Below, in pieces: positions 23,013 to 54,967 of a stretch of 64,000 nt of DNA (the stretch's first letter is position 1; every line of letters starts with the position of its first letter). This stretch comes from Granulosicoccaceae bacterium. Its GTDB lineage: Bacteria > Pseudomonadota > Gammaproteobacteria > CALCKW01. The stretch spans positions 36,225-100,224 of the forward strand of contig JAWSVD010000074.1 in NCBI GenBank assembly GCA_033852095.1, written 5' to 3'. The translations under genes were made by a program, and so were the position numbers. The notes under the pieces are model-generated. The model made no database searches. It saw only the letters and a program-made list of their open reading frames with translations, and was not told where the DNA came from.

Positions 23013-23130
23013 AAAACTCCCCCGCGACTGCCTATACTTGCAGCAACCCTAAATCGTGGCAATTTCTCGGTCTGAGCGCCCCTCGCTCCAAGCCGATGCG
23101 CCATACTCAAGACTTGGACAGCTGCTTTAC

Positions 23131-37682: not shown

Positions 37683-39359
37683 CTAGAACAGGCCCTCGAC
37701 CAAGCCCTGATCGTCGAGGCGGATTTTGTTGGCGCTCGGCACGCGTGGCAGGCCCGGCATGGTCATGATGTCGCCGCAGACCACCACGATAAAGCCCGCA
37801 CCCGCCGACAGACGGACCTCCCGGACGGGCACCACATGACCGGTGGGCGCACCGATGAGGTTCGGGTCTGTGGAAAAGCTGTACTGCGTTTTCGCCATGC
37901 ACACGGGGAACTCCCCATAACCCATCTCGGTAAATTGGCGCAATTTGTCGCGCACTTTTTTATCCGCCACCACTTCACTGGCGCCATAGAGCTGCGTGGC
38001 GATGGTGCTGATCTTATCCCACAGCGGCAGGGCATCATCGTAGATCGGAGCGAACTGCGAGCTGCCACCGTCCACCAGCTCCACCACGTGCCGCGCGAGC
38101 TCTTCGGTGCCCGCGCTGCCTTCCGCCCAGTGATTGGCCAGCACCGCTTTTACGCCCAACTCTTCTGCCGCCGCCTGCACCGCAGCCACTTCGGCGTCGG
38201 TATCGGCGCTGAAGCGATTGATCGCCACCACCACCGGCACGCCGAAGCTCTTCACGTTGCGCACATGGCGCGCCAAGTTTTCGCAGCCGCTGGTAACCGC
38301 ATCAACGTTCTCTGCTCCCAGTTCTTTTTTGTTCACCCCGCCGTGCATTTTCAAGGCCCGAACAGTGGCGACAACAACTGCGGCATCAGGCGACAAACCC
38401 GCTTTTCTGCACTTGATATCGAAGAACTTCTCCGCGCCTAGGTCCGCACCAAAACCCGCCTCGGTGACCACATAGTCCGCCAATTTAAGCGCTGCACGGG
38501 TTGCAATAACCGTATTGCAACCGTGCGCAATATTGGCAAAGGGGCCGCCGTGAATAAAGGCGGGGTTGTTCTCCAGAGTCTGTACCAGATTGGGCGCGAG
38601 CGCGTCTTTGAGCAGCACGGTCATGGCGCCGTCTGCGCTCAGCTGGCTCGCCGTGATGGGCTTTCGCTCGCGGGTCTCAGCGACTACGATGCGGCCGATG
38701 CGCTCTTGCAAATCCTGTAGATCGTTTGCCAGACAAAAGATCGCCATGATTTCGGAGGCCACCGTGATGTCGAATCCATCCTCACGTGGGTAGCCGTTCG
38801 CCACACCGCCCAAGCTGCTGTTGATATTGCGCAGGGAGCGGTCATTCATGTCGACCACCCGGCGCCAGGCGACCCGGCGAGAATCGATGCCGAGTTCATT
38901 GCCCCAATAAATGTGGTTGTCGATCATGGTGGACAATAAATTGTGCGCCGCACCAATGGCGTGAAAATCGCCGGTGAAATGCAAGTTGATGTCCTCCATC
39001 GGCACCACCTGCGCATAACCGCCGCCGGCGGCCCCGCCCTTCACGCCAAAACAGGGACCCAGAGACGGCTCGCGCAGACACATCATCGCCTTCTTGCCGA
39101 TTTTATTCAGGCCATCACCCAGCCCAACCGTAGTGGTGGTTTTACCCTCGCCCGCTGGTGTGGGGCTGATCGCGGTCACTAGCACTAGCTTGCCATCGGG
39201 CTTGTCCGCAAGGCCGGCGATATAATCCAAGGCGACTTTTGCCTTGTAATGGCCGTAGGGTTGCAGGGCCTCATCGGGTATTTGCAGTTGCTCTGCAATT
39301 TGGCTTACGCGCTGCATGGACGCTTCGCGCGCTATCTCAATATCTGTTTTGACCGACAT
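37683..39359 (-). CDS. fhs: Formate--tetrahydrofolate ligase
   Basis: The 558-aa protein has the FTHFS P-loop (TPAGEGKTT). I use the ATG at 39359 ([10 protein letters not shown]), which has a GGAG Shine-Dalgarno. The tracked ORF starts 39 nt earlier. Confidence 0.9.
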
Positions 39360-39472
39360 AAGGACTCCGATTTTAAAGCCAATAAAGCACGGCTTCACGG
39401 CATTAAAAACCCGTTAAACGCGCTTGTTTAAGTTAAAAAACAACGTCAAACACCCGAAATAAAAGCAACTCA

Positions 39473-39491
39473 CGCTGTGATTATCACAGCG
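39473..39491. promoter_or_regulatory. Perfect 19-bp palindrome (candidate operator) upstream of fhs
   Basis: The sequence is CGCTGTGAT-T-ATCACAGCG, about 115 nt upstream of the fhs start. It is immediately followed by GCGCAAACG, which resembles a PurR-box half-site. Confidence 0.4.
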
Positions 39492-40024: not shown

Positions 40025-41026
40025 ATGCAACCCAACGACCGCAGCAACACACCGCTCAGCCTATCAATAAACACGCCCGTGCACCGCATGGCCGTTGTGC
40101 TTATGCCGGACTTCCCCTTGATGGCCTTCAGCAACATCACCGAGCCCCTGCGGGCCGCGAACAGACTCAGCGGCAAACAACTCTACAGTTGGAACTGTCT
40201 GTCTTTAGACGGAGAAGAAGTCAGCTGCAGCAGCGGCATCACACTTGGCTGCACCGGCAAGCTGAGCGACAGCGAGAAATACCAGACTGTCTTGGTGTGC
40301 TCCGGCCTGCCAGTCAGCCAGGAGTCGATCAAACCCTATCACCACGGCCTGTGGCAACACGCCAACCGTGGCAGCACCCTGGGTGGTGTCAGCTCGGGCT
40401 CTCTGGTGCTGGCCAGTGCCGGCCTGCTGGACAATCACCAGTGCACCATCCACTGGGAGTACATCGTCAGCTTCGCCGAGAGCTACCCGCAACTGGACAT
40501 CGTCGATCAGCTCTACGTCATGGACCGTAAACGCTACAGCTGCTCCGGCGGCACGGCTGCCATGGACATGATGCTGGCGATGATCGCCGAGGAACACGGC
40601 AACACTTTGGCGGCGGAGGTGGCGAGCCAGTTTATCCACGACCGCACCCGCAGCGCCAGCGAACACCAGCGCCTCGCCGAAGACGCGCTCAACGCCCGGC
40701 AATCGCAAAAGATGGCCGCCGCCATCAACCTGATGCGCAGTAACCTCGACGAACCACTGGCGCCGCACCGGCTCGCCGAGCGGGTGAATCTGTCACTGCG
40801 GCAGCTGGAGAGACTGTTCAAAAAACACAAGGCGCTGACGCCCCAGCACTACTACCTCGCCATGCGACTGGACCAGTCCAGGCGCTTCGTCACCCAGACC
40901 GCCCGCCCGCTCTACGACATTGCGGTCGCGGTGGGTTTTGTTTCACAATCGCACTTCAGCAAGTGTTACCGCGAGCGCTTTGGCATGACCCCGATGCAAG
41001 ACCGCGGCAGCGCATCGTCCCATTGA
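40025..41026 (+). CDS. GlxA-family transcriptional regulator (DJ-1/PfpI-like N-domain plus AraC-type HTH)
   Basis: The protein has an N-terminal class I glutamine-amidotransferase-like domain and a C-terminal AraC HTH (..HYYLAMRLDQSRRFVTQTARPLYDIAVAVGFVSQSHFSKCYRERFGMTP). Confidence 0.8.
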   Translation: MQPNDRSNTPLSLSINTPVHRMAVVLMPDFPLMAFSNITEPLRAANRLSGKQLYSWNCLSLDGEEVSCSSGITLGCTGKLSDSEKYQTVLVCSGLPVSQESIKPYHHGLWQHANRGSTLGGVSSGSLVLASAGLLDNHQCTIHWEYIVSFAESYPQLDIVDQLYVMDRKRYSCSGGTAAMDMMLAMIAEEHGNTLAAEVASQFIHDRTRSASEHQRLAEDALNARQSQKMAAAINLMRSNLDEPLAPHRLAERVNLSLRQLERLFKKHKALTPQHYYLAMRLDQSRRFVTQTARPLYDIAVAVGFVSQSHFSKCYRERFGMTPMQDRGSASSH

Positions 41027-41045
41027 ACCACCGCAGCGGAAAACC

Positions 41046-41972
41046 ATGAGCCTGTTGATCTACTCCTCCAACGCACGCCGCTACGCGCATTGGCGCGCCG
41101 AATTTGCAGCCTGCGCCCCCGATCTCACCGTGGTCTACGGCCTCGAACAGGCCGACGATGAGGTTGAATACGCCCTGGTTTGGCAGCCACCGCACGGCTT
41201 CCTGAAAACCCTGCCCCGGCTCAAAGCCATCTTCTCCATGGGCGCCGGTGTCGATCACCTCAGCGCCGACCCCGAGCTGCCCGCGGTGCCGTTGATCCGG
41301 CAAAGAGACGCCGGCATGGGGACGCAGATGGCCGAATACGCGCTCTACGCGGCACTGCATTACCAGCGCGATTTCGACCGCATGCGCATCCACCAGTTGA
41401 CCGCTCACTGGGATAACGCCGTCAGCCAAGTCAGGCCCCGACTCAAAGTGGGCATACTGGGCATGGGCACCCTGGGCTCGGTGGTCGCACAATCCCTGTG
41501 GGACAATGGCTTCCCCGTCAGTGGCTGGTCACGCACCGCCAAGGACATGCCGAACATCCGCTGTTTCGCAGGGCAATCTCAATTGGGCTTGTTCTTGGCG
41601 CAGACCGAGCTGCTGGTGTGCCTGCTGCCCGACACAGCAGACACCCGCGGCATCATCGACAGCGAACTGCTGGCGCAACTGCCCGCCGGGGCGGTGGTGG
41701 TGAATGTGGCACGGGGTGCGCTGGTGGTGGACGATGACTTGTTGGCAGCGCTGGACAGCAATCATATTCGCGGCGCCATGCTCGACGTATTTCACACCGA
41801 GCCCCTGCCCGCAGCGCATCGTTACTGGCGCCACCCCAAGGTGGTGCTCAGCCCGCACGTGGCAGCGGAGACGGTCTACGCCCAATCGGCGCAGCAGGTC
41901 AGCGCGGAAATAGCCCGTATGGATCAGGGCTTGGCGCCCACTGAATCGGTGGACCTCAGCCGCGGTTATTGA
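41046..41972 (+). CDS. ghrA: D-isomer-specific 2-hydroxyacid dehydrogenase, GhrA-like glyoxylate/hydroxypyruvate reductase
   Basis: The N-terminus parallels E. coli GhrA/YcdW (YALVWQPPHG..LKAIFSMGAGVDHL). It has a Rossmann GxGxxG (GILGMGTLG) and the catalytic R...E...H. Confidence 0.7.
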   Translation: MSLLIYSSNARRYAHWRAEFAACAPDLTVVYGLEQADDEVEYALVWQPPHGFLKTLPRLKAIFSMGAGVDHLSADPELPAVPLIRQRDAGMGTQMAEYALYAALHYQRDFDRMRIHQLTAHWDNAVSQVRPRLKVGILGMGTLGSVVAQSLWDNGFPVSGWSRTAKDMPNIRCFAGQSQLGLFLAQTELLVCLLPDTADTRGIIDSELLAQLPAGAVVVNVARGALVVDDDLLAALDSNHIRGAMLDVFHTEPLPAAHRYWRHPKVVLSPHVAAETVYAQSAQQVSAEIARMDQGLAPTESVDLSRGY

Positions 41973-42484
41973 ACATCCTTGCAGGCGAGTGTGTCCGAGC
42001 TCTCGCGCCAGAAGCGAAAAGCGCGCTCTTCGCAGACGCGCAGGCGGCGGCTGAACTCCCGCGCGATGTTCATATAAAACAAGGTAAAAACAGCGGTGTC
42101 GTAACGCTGCAGCGCAGAGAAAGCCTCCGCCCCTACCGTCAGGGCCACGCAGTCCTCTCGGGCGTGCACACTGTAACCACGCGGCTGCAAATCGATGCCG
42201 GCGGCTTCACCAAAGGAATCTCCCGGCAAAAATTCGCGCAGTACAAAGCTGCTGTGCTCGTCTTCCAGCGAGGCAACTGCACGCCCTCTGAGCAGCACAA
42301 ACATGCCCTGATCGCCCTGGCCCGCGCGGAAAAAACTCTCACCCGCAGGTATACGCACATCGATGGTGTGCAACAGCAAGTGCTGCAAAGCGTCTTCGCT
42401 GAGACCCCCAAAGACGGGCATACTCTGCAGGCTCTCGATGGCCAATTCCGGCGTATTCGTTGTATTTGAGGAGCTGGCGTTCAA
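41966..42484 (-). CDS. Stand-alone cyclic-nucleotide-binding domain protein
   Basis: The 172-aa protein has a cNMP-binding beta-roll (FGEAAGIDLQPRGYSVHAREDCVALTV) and no DNA-binding or effector domain. Its 3' end overlaps ghrA by 7 bp in convergent orientation. Confidence 0.55.
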   Translation of the reverse strand: MNASSSNTTNTPELAIESLQSMPVFGGLSEDALQHLLLHTIDVRIPAGESFFRAGQGDQGMFVLLRGRAVASLEDEHSSFVLREFLPGDSFGEAAGIDLQPRGYSVHAREDCVALTVGAEAFSALQRYDTAVFTLFYMNIAREFSRRLRVCEERAFRFWRESSDTLACKDVQ

Positions 42485-42607
42485 ATTTCTTCCGTCCTGT
42501 GTCGTCTTGTAGACTGGGATTGTCTCTCCTTAGCAAGGGTTGATCCCACCTCGGCACGAGAATAGCTCTCTGTAAACCACACCCGCTCAAAGAGCCTAGG
42601 ATATTCC

Positions 42608-44008
42608 ATGTCTATCAGCGTGTTTGATCTTTTTAAAATCGGTATTGGCCCCTCCAGCTCCCACACGGTTGGCCCCATGCGCGCGGCCAACAGCTTCATT
42701 GCCAAGCTGAGAGACTCGGGGACGCTTGAACGTACCGCCGCGGTGCGCAGCGAGCTCTATGGCTCCCTCGGCGCCACTGGCAAAGGCCACGGATCAGACA
42801 AGGCAGTGCTGCTCGGCCTGATGGGCGAGACCCCCGAATCGACCGACACCAAAACAGTTAACGACAAGGTGCGGGAGATACGCGAAACCAAGCAGCTGGT
42901 CTTGCACGGCGGCGTCGTCTGCAAATTTGACGAGAAGAAACACCTGATACTGCACCGCCGCAAATCCTTGCCCTACCACCCCAACGGCATGCGCTTTATC
43001 GCCCAGGACAAGGCCGGTGAGTGCTTGCAAGAGGCCGTCTACTATTCGGTGGGCGGTGGTTTTGTGGTGGACGAGCACGCGGCCAGCGACTCAGACCCGC
43101 TCATCCCCGACAACACGGCCGTCAGCTACCCCTTCTCCAGTGCGGCAGAGTTGCTCGCACTGAGCGAGCAGCACGGCATGTCCATCAGCAGCATCATGCT
43201 GGCCAATGAGCTGGCGTGGCGCAGCGAAGAAGAGGTACGCAGCGAGCTGCTCAACATCTGGGCGGTGATGCAAGAGTGCGTGCAAAACGGCATCGCCACC
43301 GAAGGTGTTTTGCCCGGGGGAATGAAAGTGAAACGCCGCGCCCGCGCCCTGCACCGCAAACTGAGCAGCGATTCCACCTCCCTGCCCGGCTCGCTGGCGA
43401 CCATGGACTGGGTCAACCTCTACGCCCTAGCGGTCAACGAGGAGAACGCTGCCGGTGGCCGCGTGGTCACCGCCCCCACCAACGGCGCGGCGGGCATCAT
43501 CCCCGCTGTCATGCACTTCTACCTCAATCACTGCAACGGCGCAAACGACGACAACATCGTGCGCTTTCTGCTCACGGCGGGCGCCATCGGCACCCTCTAC
43601 AAGATGAACGCCTCCATCTCCGGCGCTGAAGTGGGCTGCCAGGGCGAAGTGGGCTCGGCCTGCTCCATGGCCGCCGGCGCCCTGACCGAGGTGCTGGGCG
43701 GCACACCGCAACAGGTGGAAAACGCCGCGGAGATCGGCATGGAACACAACCTCGGCCTCACCTGCGACCCCATTGGTGGACTTGTACAGGTGCCCTGCAT
43801 CGAACGCAACGCCATGGGCGCGGTGAAAGCGATCAATGCCTGCCGCATGGCACTGCGCGGCGACGGCTCGCACTTCGTCTCGCTCGACAGCGTCATCAAA
43901 ACCATGCGCGAGACCGGCAAAGACATGTCGCTCAAGTACAAGGAAACAGCCCGGGGCGGCCTCGCCATCCATGTTCTGGATGTCCCTGTCAATGTGGTGG
44001 AATGCTAA
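42608..44008 (+). CDS. sdaA: L-serine ammonia-lyase (Fe-S L-serine dehydratase)
   Basis: The 466-aa protein has an N-terminus ([22 protein letters not shown]) and overall layout matching SdaA. Confidence 0.9.
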
Positions 44009-44301
44009 TGTGGCTGAATAAAAATCGGCCCTAAAATCAGCTAAAACAAAGCACAGGTGTGAATATTGCGCGCACAAGCAGGGCTATAACGGCGCATATT
44101 GAAAAATATTGTCGTAAATGTTGCAGCGAATTTCATGCGGCTCTTTTTTTACTCACCCATTCACTTCACAATACGCGCCGTGACTGTCGCGCTTGACCCA
44201 AGAGTAGTCGCATTGTTAGCAGCATTATCTTGCACTCGGCCCTAGTCTAAGCGGCAATCACCCGCAGTGTAAAAAACTGGATCAACCGGAGAAACAACAG
44301 C

Positions 44302-45015
44302 ATGTCTGATGACAACGAGCAGTACGACGATGAAGAAGACATCATCCTCTCGGAATTGAACAACGAAGAGCTCGTTGAGCAGATGCACGACGACCTCTAC
44401 AACGGCCTCAAAGACGAGGTGTTCGAAGGCACCAACATCTTGCTCGAACGCGGCTGGGGGCCGGACAAGGTGCTCGCAGAGGCACTGGTCGAGGGCATGC
44501 GAATTGTCGGCATCGATTTCCGCGACGGCATTTTGTTTGTGCCCGAGGTGCTGATGGCCGCCAACTCCATGAAATCGGGCATGAGCATACTGCGCCCGCT
44601 GCTCGCTGAGACAGGCGCCGACCCGATCGGTAAAATGGTGGTCGGCACTGTCAAGGGCGACATCCACGACATCGGTAAAAACTTGGTCGGCATGATGATG
44701 GAAGGCGCCGGCTTCGAGGTCATTGATCTGGGCATCAACAACCCGGTGGAGAATTACCTCGCGGCGATAGAAGAACACAAGCCCGACATCATTGGCATGT
44801 CCGCACTGCTGACCACCACCATGCCCTACATGAAAGTGGTGATCGACACGCTCAAAGAACAGGGCATTCGCGACGACTACATTGTGCTGGTGGGTGGCGC
44901 ACCGCTGAACGAAGAGTTCGGCGACGCCATTGGCGCCGACGCCTACTGCCGCGACGCAGCCGTTGCGGTGGAAACAGCCAAAGCCAAGATCGCCGAAAAA
45001 CGCGCCAACCGCTAG
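44302..45015 (+). CDS. Cobalamin-binding corrinoid protein (MtaC/MtbC/MetH-B12-domain-like)
   Basis: It has a B12-binding cap domain followed by a Rossmann B12 domain with the DxHxxG motif (GDIHDIGKN) and the downstream S..L/GG motifs. It also has a very acidic N-terminus. Confidence 0.75.
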   Translation: MSDDNEQYDDEEDIILSELNNEELVEQMHDDLYNGLKDEVFEGTNILLERGWGPDKVLAEALVEGMRIVGIDFRDGILFVPEVLMAANSMKSGMSILRPLLAETGADPIGKMVVGTVKGDIHDIGKNLVGMMMEGAGFEVIDLGINNPVENYLAAIEEHKPDIIGMSALLTTTMPYMKVVIDTLKEQGIRDDYIVLVGGAPLNEEFGDAIGADAYCRDAAVAVETAKAKIAEKRANR

Positions 45016-45035
45016 GGGCCAGAGGAGCTGCAAGC

Positions 45036-45647
45036 ATGTCGGAGAAAACGCTCGTCATCGCTTGCGGCGCCCTCGCCCATGAGATCACCGCCCTGATCAG
45101 CGCCAATCGCTGGTCGCACATGAAAGTGCAGTGCCTGCCGGCCGATCTGCACAACTTCCCCGATAAAATCCCCGCGGCAGTGCGCGCCAAAATCCACAAG
45201 GCGCGTGCCAGCTTTGCGCACATATTTGTGGCTTATGCCGACTGCGGCACGGGTGGTCTGCTGGACAAGGTGCTGACAGAAGAGGGCGTCGAGCGCCTGC
45301 CGGGCGCGCACTGTTACGCGTTTTATACAGGCCAACGCGACTGGGAAATCCTAGCTGAAGAGGAACTCGGCACCTTCTATTTGACCGATTTTCTGGCTCG
45401 CCACTTCGATCGCTTGATCCTGCACGGCATGGGCCTGAAAAAACACCCGGAGCTGATGCCGCTGTATTTTGGCAACTACACGCGACTGGTCTATCTCGCG
45501 CAGCGCCCCACCCCTGAATTGCAAAGCCTGGCTGAAGACGCAGCGCGTCAGCTCGGCCTGAGCTATACCTACATTGAAACTGGCTACGGCGAACTCGCCG
45601 ACGGCCTGCAAAAAACCGCAGAGCACAGCATACAATGGCAAAACTGA
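45036..45647 (+). CDS. DUF1638-like protein, the family found with corrinoid methyltransferase loci
   Basis: The 203-aa protein reads MSEKTLVIACGALAHEI...YADCGTGG... . The family assignment is from memory of DUF1638 and was not searched. It lies 20 nt downstream of the corrinoid protein gene. Confidence 0.5.
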   Translation: MSEKTLVIACGALAHEITALISANRWSHMKVQCLPADLHNFPDKIPAAVRAKIHKARASFAHIFVAYADCGTGGLLDKVLTEEGVERLPGAHCYAFYTGQRDWEILAEEELGTFYLTDFLARHFDRLILHGMGLKKHPELMPLYFGNYTRLVYLAQRPTPELQSLAEDAARQLGLSYTYIETGYGELADGLQKTAEHSIQWQN

Positions 45648-45973
45648 TCACCATCTGGTGGCGGGACATCCCGTCACAAATCGTCGCTAAACAAGGGCGT
45701 AAAACATCAAAAGTACTTTTATCGGAGCGCTTTCAAGAAGCCATCGACAAAGCCGCGATGCGCGCCAAGCGCGGCACCACCGATGAATACCTGGAAGATT
45801 GGCGCCGAGAGGAAATTCAGACCAGCGAAGTCATAGAAACCGCCTCACGCGTCGCTGCTGAGCAACTGGAGGCCGACTACAGCGACGAGAGATTGTTGCA
45901 ACTGGTCAAACATAAGGGCTTGGAAGAAAACAGCAAAAATGGCCCAGAGAACGGGCCAGAGAACGGCGAGTAA
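45635..45973 (+). CDS. Small conserved hypothetical protein with a C-terminal NGPENGPENGE repeat
   Basis: The 112-aa ORF overlaps the stop of the preceding gene by 13 nt. It has a basic N-terminal half and an acidic C-terminal half. It may belong to the small virulence-factor-like family seen with DUF1638, but I am not sure. Confidence 0.45.
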   Translation: MAKLITIWWRDIPSQIVAKQGRKTSKVLLSERFQEAIDKAAMRAKRGTTDEYLEDWRREEIQTSEVIETASRVAAEQLEADYSDERLLQLVKHKGLEENSKNGPENGPENGE

Positions 45974-46008
45974 AACGCCCCACCACAACCTCAATACCTT
46001 GGAAGATC

Positions 46009-46947
46009 GTGATGACCCTAAGCGCTACCCATCATGCACCCGGCGATATCAAACAAAACATCGTCGACTTTGTGAAAGACTGGACCGTCGAGACAACACC
46101 CGGCCAGGCAAAAAAGGTCGATTCTTTCCAAGCGTATTTTAATCCGGGCACGCCCATAGCGGTCACTTTCTTGCCGGGTTCTGATTACAAAGAAACCGTG
46201 GCCACCGCGGCGCGTTTGCGCCGCGAAGGCTTTGAGCCAGCGCCGCATTTTTGCGGGCGTTCGATCAGCAGCGAAGCACAGCTGGATGATTTTTTGGCGC
46301 GCTGCAAAGGCGAGGCTGACATCAATCAGGTCGTCGCATTAGCTGGGGCTGTCAGCAAGCCAGCCGGCCCCTATGACTCCTCCATGGACATGCTGGACTC
46401 CGGGCTTTTTGACAAGCACGGCATCAGCACCATCGGCGTGGCGGGCCACCCCGAAGGCTGCATGGACATCTCGGACGAGGAACTCAAGCGCGCGCTGGCC
46501 TGGAAGAACGGACTGGCGGAGCGCACCGACGCCGAGCTCTACGTGATCACCCAGTTTGTCTTTGAGGCGGCACCTGTCATTGCCTGGGACAAACGCATCA
46601 ACGCCGAGGGCAATCAACTGCCCATCCACATCGGCGCACCTGGCCTCGCCACGCTCAAATCCCTGATCGCCCACTCCAAGGCCTGCGGCATCGGCGCATC
46701 CATGCGCTTCTTGACCCGTCAGGCCATGAACGTGAGTAAGCTGCTGACCGTCAACGCACCCGACAAGCTCTTTGTCGATCTCGCTCAATACAAGGCCAAC
46801 GACCCCCGCTGCGGTATCCGCAAGGTGCACATGTACCCGCTGGGCGGCATCAAACGCACAGCCTTCTGGACCAACGAAGTCGCCAAAGGCGCCTTCGACA
46901 TGAGCCTGGACAACAAGAGCTTCAGCCTGCAACAGCCCCTGCCCTGA
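46009..46947 (+). CDS. metF: Methylenetetrahydrofolate reductase (MetF family)
   Basis: The protein carries IGVAGHPEG (compare VAAYPEVHPE) and TQFVFEAAPVIAW...IHIGAPGL, which parallel the E. coli MetF TQFFFD...IPGILP segments. It is 312 aa long. Confidence 0.7.
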   Translation: MMTLSATHHAPGDIKQNIVDFVKDWTVETTPGQAKKVDSFQAYFNPGTPIAVTFLPGSDYKETVATAARLRREGFEPAPHFCGRSISSEAQLDDFLARCKGEADINQVVALAGAVSKPAGPYDSSMDMLDSGLFDKHGISTIGVAGHPEGCMDISDEELKRALAWKNGLAERTDAELYVITQFVFEAAPVIAWDKRINAEGNQLPIHIGAPGLATLKSLIAHSKACGIGASMRFLTRQAMNVSKLLTVNAPDKLFVDLAQYKANDPRCGIRKVHMYPLGGIKRTAFWTNEVAKGAFDMSLDNKSFSLQQPLP

Positions 46948-47083
46948 GCGGGCCTGATGGCGCGGCCGGGCATCAGCCACGCAAGATTGAATTAAAATCA
47001 GCTTTGTCCTGAAGAGCTTTCAGCACATGGCAACTACAACACGATTAGCATAATGGGTTTTGTGCCCGCACGAGGACAGCGCA

Positions 47084-47995
47084 ATGAGCAACACCGTTTT
47101 CACCGCCGCCAGTGGCAAAGAATGGGTCATGGGCTTTGACTCCCCCTTCACGATCATTGGAGAGCGCATCAACCCGACGGGACGAAAGATTCTCGCCGAA
47201 GAGATGAAAAACGGCGACTTCTCGCGCGTGGAAGCCGACGCAATTGCACAAGTCAAAGCAGGTGCGCACATGCTCGACGTCAACGCCGGCATACCGCTCG
47301 CCGATGAGCCCGCCATGTTGGCCAAAGCCATTCAGTTGGTGCAGGCGCTCTGCCCCGACACACCCATCTCCATCGACTCCTCCATCCACGAGGCACTGGA
47401 AGCTGGCTTGGCCGTGGTCAAGGGCCGCCCCCTGCTGAACTCCGTCACTGGCGAGACAGACCGCCTCGAGGCTGTGCTGCCACTGGTGAAAAAATACGAT
47501 TGTGCGGTGGTTGCCATCTCCAACGACGAGACCGGCATCTCCGAAGACCCCGCAGTGCGCTTTGCTGTGGCGAAGAAAATCGTCGAGCACGCCCAAGACT
47601 ACGGCATCAAACCCCAGGACGTGATCATCGACCCGCTGGTTATGCCCATCGGTGCGCTGGGACAGGCCGGCCGCCAAGTCTTTGATATTTTGTACAAAAT
47701 TCGCACGGAACTCGGTGCAAACTCGACCTGCGGCGCCTCCAACATCAGCTTTGGTCTGCCCAACCGCAACGCCATCAATGCCCACTTTCTGGCCATGGCC
47801 GCCAGTCACGGCATGACTTCCGCCATCATGAACCCCACCCACGAGCCCGAGGCACAGGCCATTCGCGCCGCCAACACGCTGCTGGGCAACGATTCGGATT
47901 GCGGTAAGTGGATCCAAGCCTACCGCGTGCCAGCCAAAGAAGGTGAAGTCGGTGCACGCGGGCGCCGCACCTCGCGCCGCCGTCGCCCCAGCTAA
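47084..47995 (+). CDS. Pterin-binding methyl-THF:corrinoid methyltransferase (MtrH/AcsE/MetH-pterin-domain-like)
   Basis: It has a DHPS-like TIM barrel (FTIIGERINPTGRK, DVNAG, NSV..E motifs). I use the ATG at 47084, which has an AGGA Shine-Dalgarno 8 nt upstream. The protein ends in an Arg-rich tail (RGRRTSRRRRPS). Confidence 0.75.
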   Translation: MSNTVFTAASGKEWVMGFDSPFTIIGERINPTGRKILAEEMKNGDFSRVEADAIAQVKAGAHMLDVNAGIPLADEPAMLAKAIQLVQALCPDTPISIDSSIHEALEAGLAVVKGRPLLNSVTGETDRLEAVLPLVKKYDCAVVAISNDETGISEDPAVRFAVAKKIVEHAQDYGIKPQDVIIDPLVMPIGALGQAGRQVFDILYKIRTELGANSTCGASNISFGLPNRNAINAHFLAMAASHGMTSAIMNPTHEPEAQAIRAANTLLGNDSDCGKWIQAYRVPAKEGEVGARGRRTSRRRRPS

Positions 47996-48137
47996 GGGCC
48001 GCCGCACTGGAAGTAACTGCTCATTCTTCCGAGCGGCCCCGCACTTGCATCACCACACTGTCCAGCCACGGTTGCCGGCAGTGTGTGCTTTTTTTGATGG
48101 CCCGGCCGTCGCTCTCTCTTAAGTTCGGTGCCACCTG

Positions 48138-50186
48138 ATGGATGAACAAGCTCTAGCCACTACCCCAGCCATCCCCGCCGAAGCCCAGGCAGAAGCGCTG
48201 GTGGTTTTCACCCCCTCGGGCCACCGGGGTCGATTTGCAGTGGGCACGCCCCTCTTGCAAGCTGCCCGCTCACTGGGTGTGGACATAGATTCCGTCTGCG
48301 GTGGTCGCGGCTTGTGCGGTCGCTGCCAGATACTCTGCATGGAGGGCGACTTCCCCAAACACGGCATACGCTCCAGCGCCGCCAGCCTGTCCGATTTTAG
48401 CGGCACCGAAGAACGCTTTGAACGGGTTAAAAAGAAATCCCTCGACGGCCGCCGTCTCAGCTGCCACACCCTGCTGCAAGCCGATGTGGTGGTCGATGTG
48501 CCGCCCGAATCGCAGGTGCACCGCCAGGTGGTGCGCAAAGACGCCGAAGCACTCGATATCGAGCTCGACGCCAACATCCGTCTGCACTACGTCGAAGTGC
48601 AAGAACCGGACATGCACGACCCCTCCGGGGATCTGCGCCGCCTCAAGGCGGCACTCGAAAGCGAGTGGCAGCTGCAAGATCTCGGCTGCGATTTCAACTT
48701 ATTGCCCGAATTACAAAAAACACTGCGCAAAGGCGGCTGGAAAGTCACGGTCGCGGTGGACAATGAATCCCAGATCATCGGCCTTTGGCCCGGCCTAAAG
48801 GAACGCATTTTCGGCCTGGCCGTGGACGTCGGCTCCACTACCATCGCGGCGCATCTGTGCGATTTGGCCAGCGGTGAAGTGCTCAACGCCGCTGGCATCA
48901 TGAACCCGCAGATACGTTTTGGCGAAGACCTGATGAGCCGCGTCTCCTACGTAATGATGCACCCGGGCGGCGACGTGGAGATGACCCAGGTGGTGCGCGA
49001 AGCGCTCAACACCCTGCTCGCGGACATCGCCAAAAAAGCGGATATCGCCGTGACAGACGTGCTCTCCTTCACCTTTGTCGCCAACCCGGTGATGCACCAC
49101 CTGTTGCTGGGCATTGACCCCATCGAGCTCGGCGGCGCGCCCTTTGCACTGACCATCGACGAGGCGGTCAATTGCCTCGCGCGCGAGCTCGACATAAACG
49201 CGCACGCCAACGCGCGGGTCTATTTACTGCCCTGCATTGCCGGCCACGTCGGCGCCGACACCGCGGGCATGATGCTGGCGGAACTGCCGCAGCGCTTCGC
49301 CGAGACCACCCTGCTGGTGGACGTGGGTACCAACGCCGAAATTGTACTGGGCAATGATCAGCGCATGCTGGCCTGCTCCAGCCCTACCGGCCCGGCCTTC
49401 GAAGGCGCACAGATCAGCGGCGGACAGCGCGCCGCCCCCGGCGCCATCGAACGTGTGCGCATCGACGCCACCACCCTCGAGCCACGCTTCAGCATCATCG
49501 GCTGCGAGCACTGGTCGGACCAAGATGAATTTACAGCCGCGGCCCCCAACGTCACCGGCATCTGCGGCTCGGGCATCATCGAGATCGTCGCGGAGATGTA
49601 CCTCAGCGGGGTCATCAACCAAGACGGCGCGATTGACCCGGCGATGACCGCGGTCAATGCGCGGGTCTACGAGGACGGCCGCACCTTCAGTTATTTGTTG
49701 TACGACGGCGAGGTGCGCATCGCCATCACGCAGAACGACGTGCGCCAAATACAGCTGGCCAAGGCCGCACTCTACGCCGGCATCAAACTGCTGATGGAAC
49801 ACATGAGCATCGAGCGCGTGGACCGCATTCGACTGGCGGGCGCCTTTGGCTCACACATCGACGTCAAATACGCCATGGTCTTAGGGCTGATCCCCGACTG
49901 TGTGCTGGACAAGGTCTCCTCGGCCGGCAATGCCGCCGGCTCAGGCGCGCGTATCGCGCTGCTGAACAAACAATCGCGACAAGTCATAGAAGATACCGTG
50001 CGCGCAGTGGAAAAAATAGAGACGGCGCTGGAGCCCCGTTTTCAGGAGCTCTTCGTTGACGCCATGGCCTTCCCGAACAAGACAGACAGCTTCCCTGAGT
50101 TGGCCAAAGAAGTCGCCCTACCGGCCAGCAAGGAAGTTGATCTGGGCGGCGAAAGACCCAAAGGGCGACGCAGACGCCGCCGCTGA
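48138..50186 (+). CDS. RACo/RamA-type reductive activator of corrinoid proteins ([2Fe-2S] ferredoxin plus ASKHA ATPase)
   Basis: It has an N-terminal plant-type ferredoxin (CGGRGLCGRCQ....C) followed by a roughly 550-aa ASKHA-fold region (DVGSTTIAAHL, LVDVGTNAEIVLG, CGSGIIE). It ends in GRRRRRR. Confidence 0.75.
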   Translation: MDEQALATTPAIPAEAQAEALVVFTPSGHRGRFAVGTPLLQAARSLGVDIDSVCGGRGLCGRCQILCMEGDFPKHGIRSSAASLSDFSGTEERFERVKKKSLDGRRLSCHTLLQADVVVDVPPESQVHRQVVRKDAEALDIELDANIRLHYVEVQEPDMHDPSGDLRRLKAALESEWQLQDLGCDFNLLPELQKTLRKGGWKVTVAVDNESQIIGLWPGLKERIFGLAVDVGSTTIAAHLCDLASGEVLNAAGIMNPQIRFGEDLMSRVSYVMMHPGGDVEMTQVVREALNTLLADIAKKADIAVTDVLSFTFVANPVMHHLLLGIDPIELGGAPFALTIDEAVNCLARELDINAHANARVYLLPCIAGHVGADTAGMMLAELPQRFAETTLLVDVGTNAEIVLGNDQRMLACSSPTGPAFEGAQISGGQRAAPGAIERVRIDATTLEPRFSIIGCEHWSDQDEFTAAAPNVTGICGSGIIEIVAEMYLSGVINQDGAIDPAMTAVNARVYEDGRTFSYLLYDGEVRIAITQNDVRQIQLAKAALYAGIKLLMEHMSIERVDRIRLAGAFGSHIDVKYAMVLGLIPDCVLDKVSSAGNAAGSGARIALLNKQSRQVIEDTVRAVEKIETALEPRFQELFVDAMAFPNKTDSFPELAKEVALPASKEVDLGGERPKGRRRRRR

Positions 50187-50789
50187 TTAAGCCGCTTGGC
50201 GTTGTTTCCTCTGCCCTCTGATGTGCCAGACGCGCCAGCCCTGCAACAACAACAGGGGCAGAAAATGATAAATGCCCATCATCACGTTGTATTCCAGCAG
50301 CACCCAGTGCAGAAAGGTCAGCAGCGCCGCGGCATAGGCCCAGCGCTGCAAAGGCTTCCAGCGCTTGCCGAGGGCCTTCACGGAACGGTTGTTACTAGTC
50401 GCGCCCAAGACCAATAACAGGGCAAAGGCTATCCAGCCAAACAAATAGCTTGGTTTGCTCACGCCGGCGAGGATATCCCACAACACGCCTTCGTCGATGA
50501 CATACAACACCGTGTGCAGTAGCGCGTAGGCCACGGCCGCCACCCCCCAGTGCCTGCGGGTCTTCATCAGCCAGCGGTTGCACGGGTTGGCCGGCCATAA
50601 CATCTGCAAGGGCGTGATGGCCATGGCGACCAGCATCAGACGCGTGGCGTACTTGCCGCTCGGGTGCAACAGGTAGTGCACCGTCGAATCACCGCTGATC
50701 CAGAGCCAGACAAACCAACACCAAGGCGCAGCCAGCAGAAACCAAAACAACGGCAGCATCAGGGCGCGTAACGCCGGCAGGGATGACAT
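50187..50789 (-). CDS. msrQ: MsrQ/YedZ-like heme-b ferric-reductase-domain membrane protein
   Basis: It has 5-6 TM helices with the conserved ITPL...RTRR...H..LH and LGKRW..LQ segments paralleling E. coli MsrQ. No msrP lies adjacent. The start is uncertain: the ATG at 50789 or the one at 50825. Confidence 0.55.
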   Translation of the reverse strand: MSSLPALRALMLPLFWFLLAAPWCWFVWLWISGDSTVHYLLHPSGKYATRLMLVAMAITPLQMLWPANPCNRWLMKTRRHWGVAAVAYALLHTVLYVIDEGVLWDILAGVSKPSYLFGWIAFALLLVLGATSNNRSVKALGKRWKPLQRWAYAAALLTFLHWVLLEYNVMMGIYHFLPLLLLQGWRVWHIRGQRKQRQAA

Positions 50790-51100
50790 ATGCAGCACCA
50801 AACACAGGGAAGATAAGCTTCTCATGCAAGTTCTGTGTCCGTGGCAAAATGCAAGTTGTTGAGATGCAAATTTGGGCTGGATTCGGAGCTTCTTAAGCGG
50901 GTGAAAGTGGCGGCAAGTGGCGTTGCCCCCTATCAGTGCTGACCTGAACAGAGCCGCGCTGAAGCTGCAGTCATCGCCGACAGTAAAACGCGCACCCCGC
51001 CGGCCTGCAATCCGCAGCGTTCACCGACGCTGAGCTCGCTGCCTGCTTGTACCAAGGAAAGCACTGCTCCACCGAGCACTCTTGATCAGGCGAAACGCGG

Positions 51101-52207
51101 TCAGTACTTAACCGCGATCAGCAGATCCATGACATTGGTCCCGGTCGGCCCAGTGACAAACAGCTGCCCCGTGTCCCGCAGAAAGCTGCCCGCGTCGGCG
51201 ACCGTCAAGGCGGCAGTTGCGCCCGCGGCATCGACCGACGCTCGGCCGAACCACCCGCCAGCGGCGTCCGTCGGGCCGTCACTGCCGTCGGTGCCCGCCA
51301 CCAAACCCACCACCGGCTGCCCCGCCAAACGCACCGCCAGTGCCAATGCCAGCGCCTGGTTGCGCCCGCCTTCGCCTGGATTGTCGGGCAATAACACGGT
51401 GGGTTCGCCGCCCAACACGTAGACGCCGGGCTCACCGGCTTTTAACTGAGCGGCCACCTGATCGGCGATGACAAAGACATCGTCGTACAGAGACTCCTCA
51501 TTGCAGCGCACCGTCATACCCTCTTGTTCGAGCACCGCCACAGCCGCTGTGCGTGCCACAGCGTTGCTGGCCACCAGGGTGTGGCGGCTCGAGTCGCTGA
51601 GCAAGCCAATGCCCGAACCGATAACCGCGGGATCGTCACCGGCAACATCCGACAGCAGCCAACTCTCAATGTCACTGCCGCACAGTTTCTCTAGGCCGCC
51701 GCCTTTGATCACGGACAAGCTGCAGCGCACTGTGTTTATCTCGCCGATATCAGCGCCCGCCGCCAGCAGGGCCTGCGTCTTCTGCTGCAGGGAGGCCAGG
51801 CTCTCCCCCGGTATGAGCTTCTCCACCAAGGCCGATGCTCCGCCCGATACCAGTAGCAACACGGGTTGATCGACCGCACAGGCTTGCACAAAGGCGAGCA
51901 CGCGTTCGCCCGCGTCCAAGCTGCGCTGGTCCGGCACGGGGTGGGAGGATTCAATTTGCTCAACAGCCGGATTGGCCTGCAACTCAGCATCACTGTGACC
52001 GTCCTTGGTGATCACCAGCGCACGCTCCACGGCGACACCCGCTTGTAACAGGCCCTTCAGCATCGACGGCGCGGCCTTGCCCACCGCGAGCACGTGCAGC
52101 GCCTGCTCAAATTCAGCGCTCTGCGCAGCGACACTCACCGCCCGCTCACCTTTCACTTCATCGACGGCCGACCACCAAGCCCTCTCGATGCATGCCTCGA
52201 AGCTCAT
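51101..52207 (-). CDS. Glycerate kinase of the MOFRL family (glycerate 2-kinase / TtuD-like)
   Basis: The 368-aa protein has an N-terminal DUF4147-like Rossmann domain and a C-terminal MOFRL domain (GGEPTV....GGRNQ). Confidence 0.7.
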   Translation of the reverse strand: MSFEACIERAWWSAVDEVKGERAVSVAAQSAEFEQALHVLAVGKAAPSMLKGLLQAGVAVERALVITKDGHSDAELQANPAVEQIESSHPVPDQRSLDAGERVLAFVQACAVDQPVLLLVSGGASALVEKLIPGESLASLQQKTQALLAAGADIGEINTVRCSLSVIKGGGLEKLCGSDIESWLLSDVAGDDPAVIGSGIGLLSDSSRHTLVASNAVARTAAVAVLEQEGMTVRCNEESLYDDVFVIADQVAAQLKAGEPGVYVLGGEPTVLLPDNPGEGGRNQALALALAVRLAGQPVVGLVAGTDGSDGPTDAAGGWFGRASVDAAGATAALTVADAGSFLRDTGQLFVTGPTGTNVMDLLIAVKY

Positions 52208-52508
52208 GACACGACTCCATTCCTAAACATTTGAGAAAAAAACACCAATAACTGAACAAGCTTAAGAAACTCACTGCATATCGGCACCCAAGAGCAGCCC
52301 ACCGAAGTAGCCTTTCCAACTTTTGCCAGCCGCTCTATTACAATTGCCGCCTGATTCAGCACCGCTTGCACACAGACAAGCCAACCATTGTATGTGAAAG
52401 CTTGTTTTTCTAACAGGCACCGACAAGTAGCTGATCAAAGCACTGGCAAATACGAGCCATAAAGCGTGGCTCGGCAGATAAACACTCAACGCAGCACACG
52501 CGCTGTTC

Positions 52509-53312
52509 GTGCATCACACGATGACACTATTAATGATGAATGGAAATGCTCAAAACCCAGCGTATATTGCGACGACGATGTTCGAGCAAGACCCCTACTT
52601 TCGCGCTCGCATTGGCTTCATTCTCTCCGCTACCGATCAAACTTTTCAATCGGACGCTCTGGCTCTGCAACCCGAAGGGGTGGGCTTGTATTTTACCAGA
52701 CTGGCCGAAACCTCCTTCGATGGGCTGCTGGACAGCGCTGATTTTGAACAAGCAATGGCCAGTGTCAGCGATGTCGCGCGCACGCTGTTACCCGCCGGTG
52801 GCTTGGATGTCGCCAGTTATGCGGGCGAAGAGTTGATCAATCAGATCACCGCGCCCTATTTAAACAAGGCACTGCAGCTCGGTGCCCAAGGCTCACTGGT
52901 CTCTTCTTGTTATGCTGCCACCCGTCGTGCGCTGCGGGCAGTCGACGCTAAACGCATCGTGATAGCGACCGGAAAAACGGGCCCACGGAACCAAGCAACG
53001 GTCGACATGTTCAACGCCTGCGGCGCTGAAGTGCTGAGCATTCAAGGCTTAAACCTCAAAAACCAGGCTGATCTGGGCCGCCTCTCACACGCCTACATCC
53101 GTGACTTCAGCCTCTCGGTAGACCGTGCGGACGCCGATGCGATCATCATCAGCTCCCACGCGATGCGCGCCATGGAAATTGTGGATCAAATTGAACAAAT
53201 TGCCGCTAAACCCGTGCTCTGCTCTAACCAGATCACCATTTGGGACGCCTTTCGATGCGCCGGCATCAGCGATAAATTTCAGGGTTACGGCAGCCTGCTG
53301 CGCTGCCACTGA
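52509..53312 (+). CDS. Asp/Glu/hydantoin racemase-superfamily protein (maleate isomerase / arylmalonate decarboxylase-like)
   Basis: The family assignment rests on RIGFILSATDQT near the N-terminus and a second half-domain with a conserved Cys/Ser context. The start may be the later ATG at 52578. Confidence 0.5.
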   Translation: MHHTMTLLMMNGNAQNPAYIATTMFEQDPYFRARIGFILSATDQTFQSDALALQPEGVGLYFTRLAETSFDGLLDSADFEQAMASVSDVARTLLPAGGLDVASYAGEELINQITAPYLNKALQLGAQGSLVSSCYAATRRALRAVDAKRIVIATGKTGPRNQATVDMFNACGAEVLSIQGLNLKNQADLGRLSHAYIRDFSLSVDRADADAIIISSHAMRAMEIVDQIEQIAAKPVLCSNQITIWDAFRCAGISDKFQGYGSLLRCH

Positions 53313-53737: not shown

Positions 53738-54967
53738 ATGCAAAACCACCCTTTGCGCAACCTGATCATCCAAGAGGTTCATGCGCGCCCTTTTTACAAT
53801 TTGCACGCACCGCTGGCGCAGTGCCATATTGCCGTTGCCTACAGCCCCGCTGAAAGGGCCGTGACCGCACAGCACATACAACAGCTTGCGCCACAACTCG
53901 GTCTCGATGCACAGCCAGCGGACAGTGGCTTCTTCTTTTGCCGCAACAAAGAGTGGGCACTGCGTTTTGAGCCGCACACGGATTTTTTCACTGTGACGCT
54001 CTACAAACTGCAGCAATTGACGCCGCCACGCTTCCCACAGGACTGGCTCGACAAGCTGCCCGGGCAGCTGCTCTGTGGCATCGAACTGATACTGCGGGAC
54101 GAAACCACGGATTACCCCGCCGACCGGGAATACACAGTGCAGTCTCTGGCCGACGGCACGGCCCGCATTCACACGGACTTTCTGCCCACGGGCAACCAGC
54201 GCTTCAATCGTTTTATCGTGCAAAGCCTCGGCATTCAACCCGCCCAGACAGGAAGACTGCTCAATCTTCTGTGTGAAATCGAGACCTATAGACACGCCGC
54301 GATGCTCTCTCTGCCGATGGCCCGCAAGCAAATGCCGCAAATCACGGAATACGACCAACAACTGGCGCAGATAGCAGAGCGCGCCACGCTGGACGAAGAA
54401 CCCGGCGTCTTGTTGCAAGAGCTGAGCGCCCTCGCGGCATCAGTCGAAGCGCTTTCTGCGCGTTCAGCCAATCAATTTTCCGCCTCAGAGGCCTATTTTA
54501 ATCTCGTCGACCGGCGTATCAAAGAACTGCGAGAGCACCACGAACCAGGCTTGCTCAACATCGCTGAATTCATGGACCGTCACCTCGTGCCCGCGCGGGA
54601 CACTTGCAGAGCCTGTGGCACGCGCATCGACCGCCTCTCCAACCGCATCGCGCGCACAACCGATTTGATACGCTCCCAGGTCAGCCTCAATCTCGAGAGC
54701 CAGAACCGAGATCTGCTGACCGCCATCAACCGCCGCACGGACCGTCAGCTGCGCTTACAAGCCAAGGTCGAAGGCCTCACCGTTATCGTGGTCACCTACT
54801 ACGCCTTCGATCTACTGGAGCGGAGTATCCGCAACATTTTTCCCACGGGCTATTGGGAAGATTTGAGCTTGAAACTGCTGAGTGCAGTCGTGCCCTTCAT
54901 CGCGCTCGCACTGTACCTGCACGTGAGGAAGTTGCTGCGAGACTTCAGCGACACTGCCGATCAGTAG
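53738..54967 (+). CDS. DUF3422-family membrane-anchored protein
   Basis: The 409-aa protein has a long soluble N-terminal domain and two C-terminal TM helices (VIVVTYYAFDLL..., LLSAVVPFIALALYL). The family name is from memory. Confidence 0.45.
   Translation: MQNHPLRNLIIQEVHARPFYNLHAPLAQCHIAVAYSPAERAVTAQHIQQLAPQLGLDAQPADSGFFFCRNKEWALRFEPHTDFFTVTLYKLQQLTPPRFPQDWLDKLPGQLLCGIELILRDETTDYPADREYTVQSLADGTARIHTDFLPTGNQRFNRFIVQSLGIQPAQTGRLLNLLCEIETYRHAAMLSLPMARKQMPQITEYDQQLAQIAERATLDEEPGVLLQELSALAASVEALSARSANQFSASEAYFNLVDRRIKELREHHEPGLLNIAEFMDRHLVPARDTCRACGTRIDRLSNRIARTTDLIRSQVSLNLESQNRDLLTAINRRTDRQLRLQAKVEGLTVIVVTYYAFDLLERSIRNIFPTGYWEDLSLKLLSAVVPFIALALYLHVRKLLRDFSDTADQ

Follow-up and report, generated by a model that had tools for sequence, protein, structure and literature searches.

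Within a 64,000-nt stretch of a Granulosicoccaceae genome (Gammaproteobacteria, order Chromatiales; contig JAWSVD010000074.1, positions 36,225 to 100,224; hereinafter the window), six genes located at positions 44302-50186 were found to encode a corrinoid protein (MtgC), a DUF1638 protein, a small PF13769 protein, a homolog of methylenetetrahydrofolate reductase (MTHFR) designated MetF2, a methyltetrahydrofolate (methyl-THF):corrinoid methyltransferase (MtgD) and an ATP-dependent reductive activator of the RACo type. We consider it likely that this locus encodes the substrate-independent core components of a cobalamin-dependent methyltransferase system of the MtgBCD(E) type and is wired for methyl-group catabolism. 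Judging by sequence similarity, its genes are orthologs of the published MtgC/MtgD/RamA-like/DUF1638/MetF2 set, which acts as aerobic glycine betaine demethylase and as split methionine synthase. The preliminary description of this DNA regarded it as a poorly characterized system, which had to be abandoned, as genetic studies of 2018 and 2025 had described the system, and its occurrence in marine Gammaproteobacteria had already been reported. The locus is a well-preserved gammaproteobacterial example of this known system and represents a minority variant, with a type-4 MTHFR and with the gene of the substrate:corrinoid methyltransferase (MT1) unlinked.

Fitness profiling of Phaeobacter inhibens showed that this bacterium makes methionine via a three-part MetH, a RamA-like Fer2/DUF4445 protein and a DUF1638 protein, the last of which was in this way genetically tied to B12 reactivation (Price 2018, PMC5764234). 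In Ruegeria pomeroyi, neither methionine synthesis nor the demethylation of glycine betaine proceeds without MtgC (SPO2160) and MtgD (SPO1863), with the MttB-family protein MtgB acting as MT1 and the PF02574 protein MtgE as the homocysteine module, and N-osmolytes induce the RamA-like protein (SPO2041), the DUF1638 protein (SPO2162), the MetF2 paralog (SPO1862), SdaA (strongly), as well as tetrahydrofolate (THF)-linked one-carbon (C1) and serine-cycle proteins (Mausz 2025, PMC12478193). The same study found marine Alpha-, Gamma- and Deltaproteobacteria to carry mtgC, frequently with other genes of the system located alongside (Sinorhizobium meliloti being the fully clustered case), and placed the proteobacterial MtgC proteins in a clade separate from those of anaerobes (PMC12478193). 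A preprint of December 2025 extends the MtgBCD work to P. inhibens.

All six open reading frames (ORFs) predicted earlier for the analyzed region were present, intact and co-directional on the + strand (Table 1). The intergenic gaps are 20, -13, 38, 136 and 142 bp, the negative value reflecting a 13-nt overlap of the PF13769 gene start with the DUF1638 stop, and this spacing is operon-like. For metF2 and mtgD, ATG 46012 and ATG 47084 are the likelier true starts, in agreement with independent gene calls on identical public contigs. Compared with an 85%-identical relative, the proportion of nonsynonymous differences (pN) was 0.04-0.14 for all six genes, with the synonymous one (pS) saturated at 0.66-0.76; for the whole block including the upstream genes the respective values were 0.04-0.14 (0.25 for the GhrA-like gene) and 0.66-0.80 (saturated), and dN/dS was ≤0.09 wherever dS was computable. 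Such low pN against saturated pS means that the genes of the block are not pseudogenes, a concern raised in the preliminary description. Considering this purifying selection and the same gene order in 80 related loci (see below), the six-gene arrangement is far beyond chance. The possibility that these genes are decaying or unexpressed relics may therefore be set aside as practically nil: the ORFs are intact, catalytic motifs and synteny are conserved, and no observation was counted in its favor, as the scan for sigma-70 promoters and terminators (39300-52500), which yielded background level only, was uninformative. No cobalamin or other riboswitch was found upstream of mtgC; at the Rfam gathering threshold only seven tRNAs were detected in the whole window, and a permissive search of the region 39300-50900 gave only two chance matches.

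Table 1. Genes of the six-gene module and of its neighborhood in the window
Feature	Coordinates	Strand	Evidence
Fhs formate-THF ligase	37683..39359	-	PF01268; PRK13505 931 bits (cut-off 652)
GbdR-family AraC/DJ-1 regulator	40025..41026	+	PF01965 + PF12833; NCBIfam GbdR 324 bits (cut-off 480)
GhrA-like glyoxylate/hydroxypyruvate reductase (serine-cycle type step)	41046..41972	+	PF02826; GhrA 288 bits (cut-off 403)
SdaA L-serine ammonia-lyase, directly upstream of mtgC	42608..44008	+	TIGR00720 713 bits (cut-off 345)
MtgC-type corrinoid protein	44302..45015	+	PF02607 + PF02310
DUF1638 protein	45036..45647	+	PF07796, E 2e-26
PF13769 'Virulence_fact' small protein	45635..45973	+	Pfam, E 2e-19
MetF2, type-4 (S6MTHFR-like) FAD-dependent MTHFR	46012..46947 (alternative start 46009)	+	7XG9/7XLF match
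MtgD, methyl-THF:corrinoid methyltransferase, pterin-binding TIM barrel	47084..47995 (alternative start 47060)	+	PF00809, PRK07535
RACo-type ATP-dependent reductive activator ('RamA-like' in literature)	48138..50186	+	PF00111 + PF17650 + PF17651 + PF14574
Glycerate 2-kinase-like protein (DUF4147/MOFRL)	51101..52207	-	Pfam; weak NCBIfam glycerate 2-kinase matches, below equivalog cut-off

The domain content of the encoded proteins agrees with the earlier view of this set as the back half of a three-component methyltransferase, i.e., the corrinoid carrier, the corrinoid:THF methyltransferase (MT2), a reactivator and the enzyme interconverting methyl- and methylene-THF. The corrinoid protein is composed of a B12-binding cap (PF02607, E 2e-14) and an intact Rossmann B12-binding domain (PF02310, E 2e-28), and it carries the expected His-on DxHxxG motif (DIHDIG, residues 120-125), plus SALL and VGG motifs. 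Its top NCBIfam models were MtgC, MtbC and pyl_corrinoid, all under the equivalog cut-offs (204 vs 370 bits). Pairwise comparisons revealed 80-88% identity with the copies in 54 related loci, 74-82% with those of the S. meliloti, Paracoccus, Aminobacter and Azoarcus clusters (78% for the S. meliloti 'cobalamin-binding protein', which adjoins MttB and DUF1638), 39-42% with copies from anaerobes and archaea, and approximately 36% with MetH and CmuA. As placed by pairwise identity, MtgC appears to belong to the proteobacterial clade, apart from MetH and from the MtgC proteins of anaerobes.

MtgD showed clear similarity to the Pterin_bind family (PF00809, E 5e-29) and to PRK07535 (356 bits, cut-off 259), while the dihydropteroate synthase (DHPS) model scored only 27 bits, which bears out the claim that it is a pterin-binding methyltransferase and not a DHPS; it is 62% identical to the S. 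meliloti 'methyltetrahydrofolate cobalamin methyltransferase'. In the activase, the Fer2, RACo_linker, Raco_middle and RACo_C_ter (E 7e-89) domains follow one another in this order, and Cys54/60/63/109 correspond to the cysteine set of a plant-type [2Fe-2S] domain, as expected for a RACo activator; its identity with the S. meliloti ASKHA protein is 58%. A classical single-polypeptide MetH (PF02574, pterin, B12 and PF02965 modules) is not encoded in the module, which contains only the pterin and B12 modules as separate proteins, and the MetH model TIGR02082 gave partial matches only (130-149 bits vs the cut-off of 1011).

The presence of an AcsE-like methyltransferase, a corrinoid protein and a RACo/AcsV activator might also recall a remnant or an analog of the methyl branch of the Wood-Ljungdahl pathway. 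Indeed, MtgD matches the model of the carbon monoxide dehydrogenase/acetyl-CoA synthase (CODH/ACS) methyltransferase and, weakly, CdhD, and the activase matches the AcsV model. However, these scores are far below the cut-offs (141 vs 370 and 391 vs 800 bits, respectively), the corrinoid protein is of the MetH/MtgC type with DxHxxG and not a corrinoid iron-sulfur protein (CoFeSP, CFeSP), neither the window nor any of the related loci was found to contain CODH/ACS genes, and the hosts belong to aerobic heterotroph lineages. Given these scores, the lack of CFeSP and the lack of CODH/ACS genes, this scarcely credible reading can be considered as effectively refuted.

The fourth gene of the module had been described as encoding a MetF-type reductase; its product is indeed an MTHFR homolog, yet not a canonical MetF but a protein of the type-4 class. 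MetF2 (311 aa) matched nearly along its full length the MTHFR of Sphingobium lignivorans SYK-6 (S6MTHFR; 7XG9/7XLF; E=4e-54), as compared with E 0.26-0.3 for Thermus MetF, and the MetF2 region gave no tblastn match to MetF of loci carrying a MetV+MetF pair. Its PF02219 score (23.4 bits) is just under the 24-bit gathering threshold, ready-made Pfam annotations mark the gene as '-', 'faint' or 'weak', and routine Pfam annotation will miss the type-4 MTHFRs of this subclade. S6MTHFR oxidizes methyl-THF, hardly binds NADH and gives no detectable methyl-THF (Yu et al. 2025, PMC11868366). The motifs of the type are Leu48-Pro49 in the loop β2-α3, which blocks NADH and whose Leu48 is buttressed in S6MTHFR by Arg78, Phe215/Cys219 in helix α8, and Pro268-Phe269-Gly-Gly in the loop β8-α11; type-4 MTHFRs partner demethylases (THF-dependent ones and CmuAB), and the natural electron acceptor of these enzymes, S6MTHFR included, is still to be identified (PMC11868366).

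The 120 closest homologs of MetF2 were aligned with S6MTHFR, and Glu21, Thr23, Thr46, Leu48, Pro49, Phe176, Cys219, Tyr267, Pro268, Gly270 and Gly271 turned out to be invariant or nearly so, as in S6MTHFR. The loop β2-α3 of MetF2 reads TFLPG, with Leu and Pro invariant among the 120 homologs. In helix α8 the Cys219 equivalent is invariant and Phe215 is swapped for an equally invariant His, whereas in the loop β8-α11 the Pro and both Gly residues are kept and Phe269 is replaced by Leu; moreover, Arg78 is replaced by Ser, with Arg77 kept. As these three differences are invariant across the homologs, MetF2 is, in terms of its sequence, a type-4-like enzyme of a distinct subclade. On account of the same departures, we only infer that MetF2 oxidizes 5-methyl-THF to 5,10-methylene-THF.

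The DUF1638 protein, named already in the preliminary description, is 49% identical to its S. meliloti counterpart. Its predicted structure (predicted local distance difference test, pLDDT, of 84) has a Rossmann-like fold with two lobes, and the structural neighbors found for it are generic ones only. Among 150 diverse representatives, Cys10, Cys70, Cys93, His39, His92, Asp69 and Thr117-Asp118 are kept in ≥94%, and Cys33 in only 70%, and the conserved residues follow β strands in the predicted structure, an arrangement that may point to a metal or thiol active site. It is also worth mentioning that the motifs IACGAL and GAHCY bear a loose resemblance to those around the catalytic cysteines of Asp/Glu racemases, the enzymes that also gave the best (weak) fold matches of this protein.

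The 112-aa protein, initially noticed only as a small charged one, belongs to PF13769 and is a conserved member of the module (50% identity with its S. meliloti counterpart). Its predicted structure (pLDDT 83) showed no relative among solved folds. Its gene precedes the MTHFR genes in both types of the module, i.e., with MetV+MetF and with the type-4 enzyme, and on the basis of this fixed position one may speculate that the role of the protein is tied to methyl-THF oxidation.

For the comparative analysis, species-representative genomes were searched with the RACo protein, which gave at least 590 relatives, and 80 loci were fetched and kept. Among the matches listed, the best one (83% identity) came from a Granulosicoccaceae metagenome-assembled genome (MAG), and the next (about 65-70%) from Granulosicoccaceae, Oceanospirillaceae, Competibacteraceae, Burkholderiales and various Alphaproteobacteria, so that relatives of the module span Gamma-, Beta- and Alphaproteobacteria. 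Wherever the contig was long enough, the order MtgC-DUF1638-PF13769-MTHFR gene(s)-MtgD-RACo was the rule. The MTHFR position is occupied by a MetV (PF12225) and MetF (PF02219, 101 bits) pair in about 60 of these 80 loci, and only six, from Oceanospirillaceae (including Candidatus Njordibacter) and one MAG labelled Acidimicrobiia, carry a type-4 MTHFR. The replacement of MetV+MetF by a type-4 enzyme is the main structural peculiarity of the window module.

Within 10 kb of the module in these loci, the following Pfam-confirmed families were counted: GbdR-like AraC/DJ-1 regulators (38 of 80), MttB (27), BetA (18), PurU (16), BetB (15), OpuAC (11), PF02574 (11) and FolD (9). Genes for choline oxidation and for the uptake of betaine are accordingly frequent companions of the module. 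In the S. meliloti region, with unrelated genes interspersed, bmt is followed by genes for an MttB-family, a cobalamin-binding, a DUF1638 and a 'virulence factor' protein and then by the MTHFR genes (an MTHFR C-terminal-domain protein and an MTHFR), the methyl-THF cobalamin methyltransferase and the ASKHA protein. Replicons of Paracoccus aminovorans and Azoarcus KH32C carry the same module with a GlxA (GbdR-like) regulator, together with MttB, or with ProVWX, PurU and a large FAD-dependent oxidoreductase with electron transfer flavoprotein (ETF) genes.

Two module types were distinguished in Granulosicoccaceae. In the first one (loci L006, L008, L009, L013, L014 and L023), the MTHFR position holds MetV+MetF, and genes for a near-canonical GbdR and for MttB follow closely downstream; in six MAGs of the family RACo (+) is followed by GbdR (-) and MttB (-), this regulator reaching 477 bits against the GbdR cut-off of 480. 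The second type, comprising the window, L005 and L089, has the type-4 MTHFR and no MttB nearby. Two loci found via MetF2 homologs, L089 (85% identity) and L091 (65%), keep the block composed of the GbdR-like, GhrA-like, cyclic nucleotide-binding (-) and SdaA genes followed by MtgC-DUF1638-PF13769-MetF2-MtgD-RACo. Still further upstream, both contain a His_Phos_1 gene, which in L089 is separated from the regulator by fhs. Directly 3' of RACo, L089 carries a DmdA-like gene of the GcvT family (14518-15669; 373 bits, cut-off 410), with no counterpart in the window, whose product would supply methyl-THF by a THF-dependent route beside the type-4 MTHFR. In L005, the closest genome match, the glycerate 2-kinase-like gene is also located downstream. 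A 755-aa gene of L005, situated between RACo and an MsrQ-like gene, was considered as a candidate MT1 and rejected, as its product is M6-metalloprotease-like.

In the window itself, the neighbors named in the preliminary description were recovered, fhs and sdaA with scores above their cut-offs, and the GhrA-like and glycerate kinase-like genes both below the equivalog cut-offs. The GbdR-family gene is the likely regulator of the block. The earlier claim of a missing MT1 also stands. Pfam-confirmed representatives from related loci (MttB, PF02574, MetV, MetF, PurU, FolD, OpuAC and BetA/B) were used as tblastn queries, and none of them, MttB (PF06253) and PF02574 included, gave a match at E≤1e-3 anywhere in the 64 kb.

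Based on the above, the following course of events may be proposed. An MT1 encoded elsewhere would methylate Co(I)-MtgC, and MtgD would hand the methyl group to THF; by analogy with the relatives, this MT1 is most probably an MtgB of the non-pyrrolysine MttB family, with glycine betaine or a similar quaternary amine as its substrate. MetF2 would then oxidize methyl-THF to methylene-THF with an acceptor other than NAD(P)+, and the C1 unit might be oxidized to formate and CO2 (Fhs) or pass via serine to pyruvate and ammonium (SdaA), an alternative fate being serine-cycle-type steps via the GhrA-like reductase and the glycerate kinase. Co(II)-MtgC would be re-reduced by the RACo-type activase with ATP and its [2Fe-2S] cluster, presumably assisted by DUF1638, and the upstream GbdR-family regulator probably controls the block. 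As in Ruegeria and Phaeobacter, methionine might in addition be made by MtgC and MtgD working in the opposite direction together with a PF02574 protein (MtgE).

The preliminary description had offered two readings of the locus, a split MetH and a demethylation route, and favored the latter. This preference is strengthened by the type-4 MTHFR, the GbdR-family regulator, the linkage to sdaA and the GhrA-like gene, and the betaine/choline genes and MttB in relatives; the treatment of the two readings as alternatives was mistaken, because MtgC and MtgD of R. pomeroyi are needed for both roles (PMC12478193). It should be stressed that several observations weigh against the catabolic proposal. No kind of MT1 is encoded in the window, which hence does not reveal the methyl donor, and in the tblastn search a betaine transporter, betAB, folD and purU were absent from it as well. 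The regulator is a divergent GbdR paralog (324 bits vs 477 for the regulators beside MttB in other Granulosicoccaceae), which may sense something other than glycine betaine. The substitutions R78S, F215H and F269L of MetF2 concern three positions discussed for S6MTHFR, in which the change F269G reduces the oxidation activity (PMC11868366). Finally, all functional data come from Alphaproteobacteria, at 50-80% identity.

A quite improbable explanation is that the module serves solely as a split cobalamin-dependent methionine synthase with a distant PF02574 protein, in which RACo and DUF1638 stand in for the domain that serves reactivation by S-adenosylmethionine, and takes no part in catabolism. 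The same proteins are needed for methionine prototrophy in P. inhibens and R. pomeroyi (PMC5764234, PMC12478193), PF02574 genes accompany some of the related modules (see the counts above), and approximately 70% of MtgBCD genomes lack MetH (PMC12478193). Nevertheless, the operon MTHFR is of the type that was shown to yield no methyl-THF, the block is linked to the GbdR-family regulator, SdaA, Fhs and serine-cycle-type genes, there is no PF02574 gene within the window, and the coexistence of both roles in the model organism makes exclusive biosynthesis less likely.

It is also conceivable, although somewhat unlikely, that the core serves another methyl donor via a different MT1 (another quaternary amine such as proline betaine, carnitine, gamma-butyrobetaine or a choline derivative, or else methanol, a methyl halide or a methoxylated compound), or that it is a methyl-THF oxidation hub fed also by DmdA-type THF-dependent demethylases. 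This would be consistent with the unlinked MT1, the divergence of the regulator, the up to seven MttB paralogs of marine bacteria, presumed to act on different substrates (PMC12478193), the DmdA-like gene right after RACo in the 85%-identical relative L089, and the known partnership of type-4 MTHFRs with THF-dependent demethylases and CmuAB (PMC11868366). On the other hand, every MT1 linked to the module in the 80 loci is of the MttB family and its companions are betaine/choline genes, the identity of MtgC with the CmuA corrinoid domain is low, and no URO-D/MtaA-like or MtaB-like genes were seen in the window or among the recurrent flanking families.

A broader and rather improbable version of this idea would make the window-type modules a distinct 'methyl hub' lineage, in which methyl groups from several unlinked corrinoid- and THF-dependent demethylases are committed irreversibly to oxidation, PF13769 acts as the missing redox partner or adaptor of the methyl-THF-oxidizing MTHFR, and DUF1638 as a Cys/His metal- or thiol-dependent factor acting on the corrinoid protein. 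It was suggested by the combination of the type-4 MTHFR, the lack of MT1 in cis, the divergent GbdR and the DmdA-like gene at the 3' end of L089.

Returning to the MtgBCD(E)-type core for methyl catabolism, its comparison with the published systems showed both shared and distinct features. With the MtgBCD(E) systems the module shares the same five families (corrinoid protein, pterin-binding methyltransferase, Fer2-ASKHA activase, DUF1638 and MTHFR paralog), as well as the association with a GbdR-like regulator, SdaA and THF-C1 genes. It differs in being one compact six-gene operon, whereas the genes are scattered in Ruegeria and Phaeobacter, in having no MtgB or MtgE within the 64 kb of the window (MtgB is also unlinked in the model organisms), in its type-4 MTHFR in place of the MetV+MetF of S. 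meliloti, Paracoccus and Azoarcus, and in its gammaproteobacterial host.

The logic of MT1, corrinoid protein, MT2 and ATP-dependent activase is common to the MtgBC/MtqA/RamQ system of Desulfitobacterium hafniense and MttBC/MtbA/RamA of methanogens. However, the window corrinoid protein scores well under the respective equivalog cut-offs, MT2 of methanogens is a coenzyme M methyltransferase and not a pterin-binding THF methyltransferase, and RamA has a domain with two [4Fe-4S] clusters, in contrast to the N-terminal [2Fe-2S] domain and RACo architecture of the window activase. With the RACo of Carboxydothermus hydrogenoformans this activase shares the four Pfam domains in the same order and the [2Fe-2S] cysteine set; the client there is CoFeSP, whereas the predicted client in the window is the MetH/MtgC-type corrinoid protein, with DUF1638 co-occurring.

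Aerobic corrinoid-dependent methyl transfer to THF, followed by type-4 MTHFR oxidation and the THF C1 pathway, is also known from CmuAB of Methylorubrum extorquens CM4, which has its own type-4 MetF. CmuA, however, fuses MT1 with the corrinoid domain, while the window corrinoid protein is a stand-alone one, and cmuC, folD and purU are not present in cis. With S6MTHFR, the window MetF2 shares full-length homology, the conserved residues listed above (Glu21 to Gly271) and a location beside a methyl-THF-generating system, and differs from it by the Ser78, His215 and Leu269 equivalents, by its corrinoid-dependent partner system (the partners of S6MTHFR are the THF-dependent demethylases LigM/DesA) and by the PF13769 gene preceding it.

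Cobalamin-dependent glycine betaine demethylation is a recently recognized major and highly expressed route in the ocean, which links B12 supply, osmolyte turnover and methionine synthesis. The locus opens no new kind of biology; it adds a compact gammaproteobacterial (Granulosicoccaceae-like) example, and its comparison with the relatives shows that the module comes in two flavors, depending on the methyl-THF-oxidizing enzyme (MetV+MetF or type-4 MTHFR), with PF13769 as a constant, unstudied member. For metagenome annotation it is of relevance that the Pfam MTHFR model misses the type-4 gene here and that mtgC and mtgD can occur without a linked mtgB.

Several other genes of the window deserve a mention. 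A His_Phos_1 protein is encoded at 36933-37547 (-), with 117 bits for the CobC alpha-ribazole phosphatase (cut-off 163) and 114 bits for phosphoserine phosphatase; this gene accompanies the block in L089 and L091 as well, and a link to the metabolism of cobalamin or of serine is conceivable. The gene at 50187-50825 (-) encodes a ferric-reductase-like/MsrQ-like transmembrane heme protein (PF01794; MsrQ 72 bits, cut-off 130) and is convergent on RACo, the stop codons of the two genes abutting without a single base between them; an MsrP partner gene is not found next to it, and a role of this protein as electron acceptor for MetF2 would be pure speculation. Further downstream, a EutA-like gene of the arylmalonate decarboxylase/Asp-Glu racemase family (52509-53312, +; 105 bits for the ectoine EutA model, cut-off 318) is followed by a DUF3422 gene (53738-54967, +), which may be another compatible-solute catabolic element.

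The right of the window holds, according to Pfam, unrelated regulators and enzymes, and its left holds housekeeping genes (rpsB, map, glnD, dapE, ppiD, cysS, era, rnc, lepA, lepB, degP-like, rseA, rpoE-like and rsgA). A 487-aa ORF at 23056-24519 (+) matched no Pfam family at E≤0.01, nor did the public collection contain a called gene identical to it; it may be mis-started, spurious or an orphan. Two tRNA clusters, of three (12088-12423, -) and four genes (19123-19587, -), flank ORFs of the sizes of lon-clpX-clpP-tig, labels that rest on ORF size and context only.

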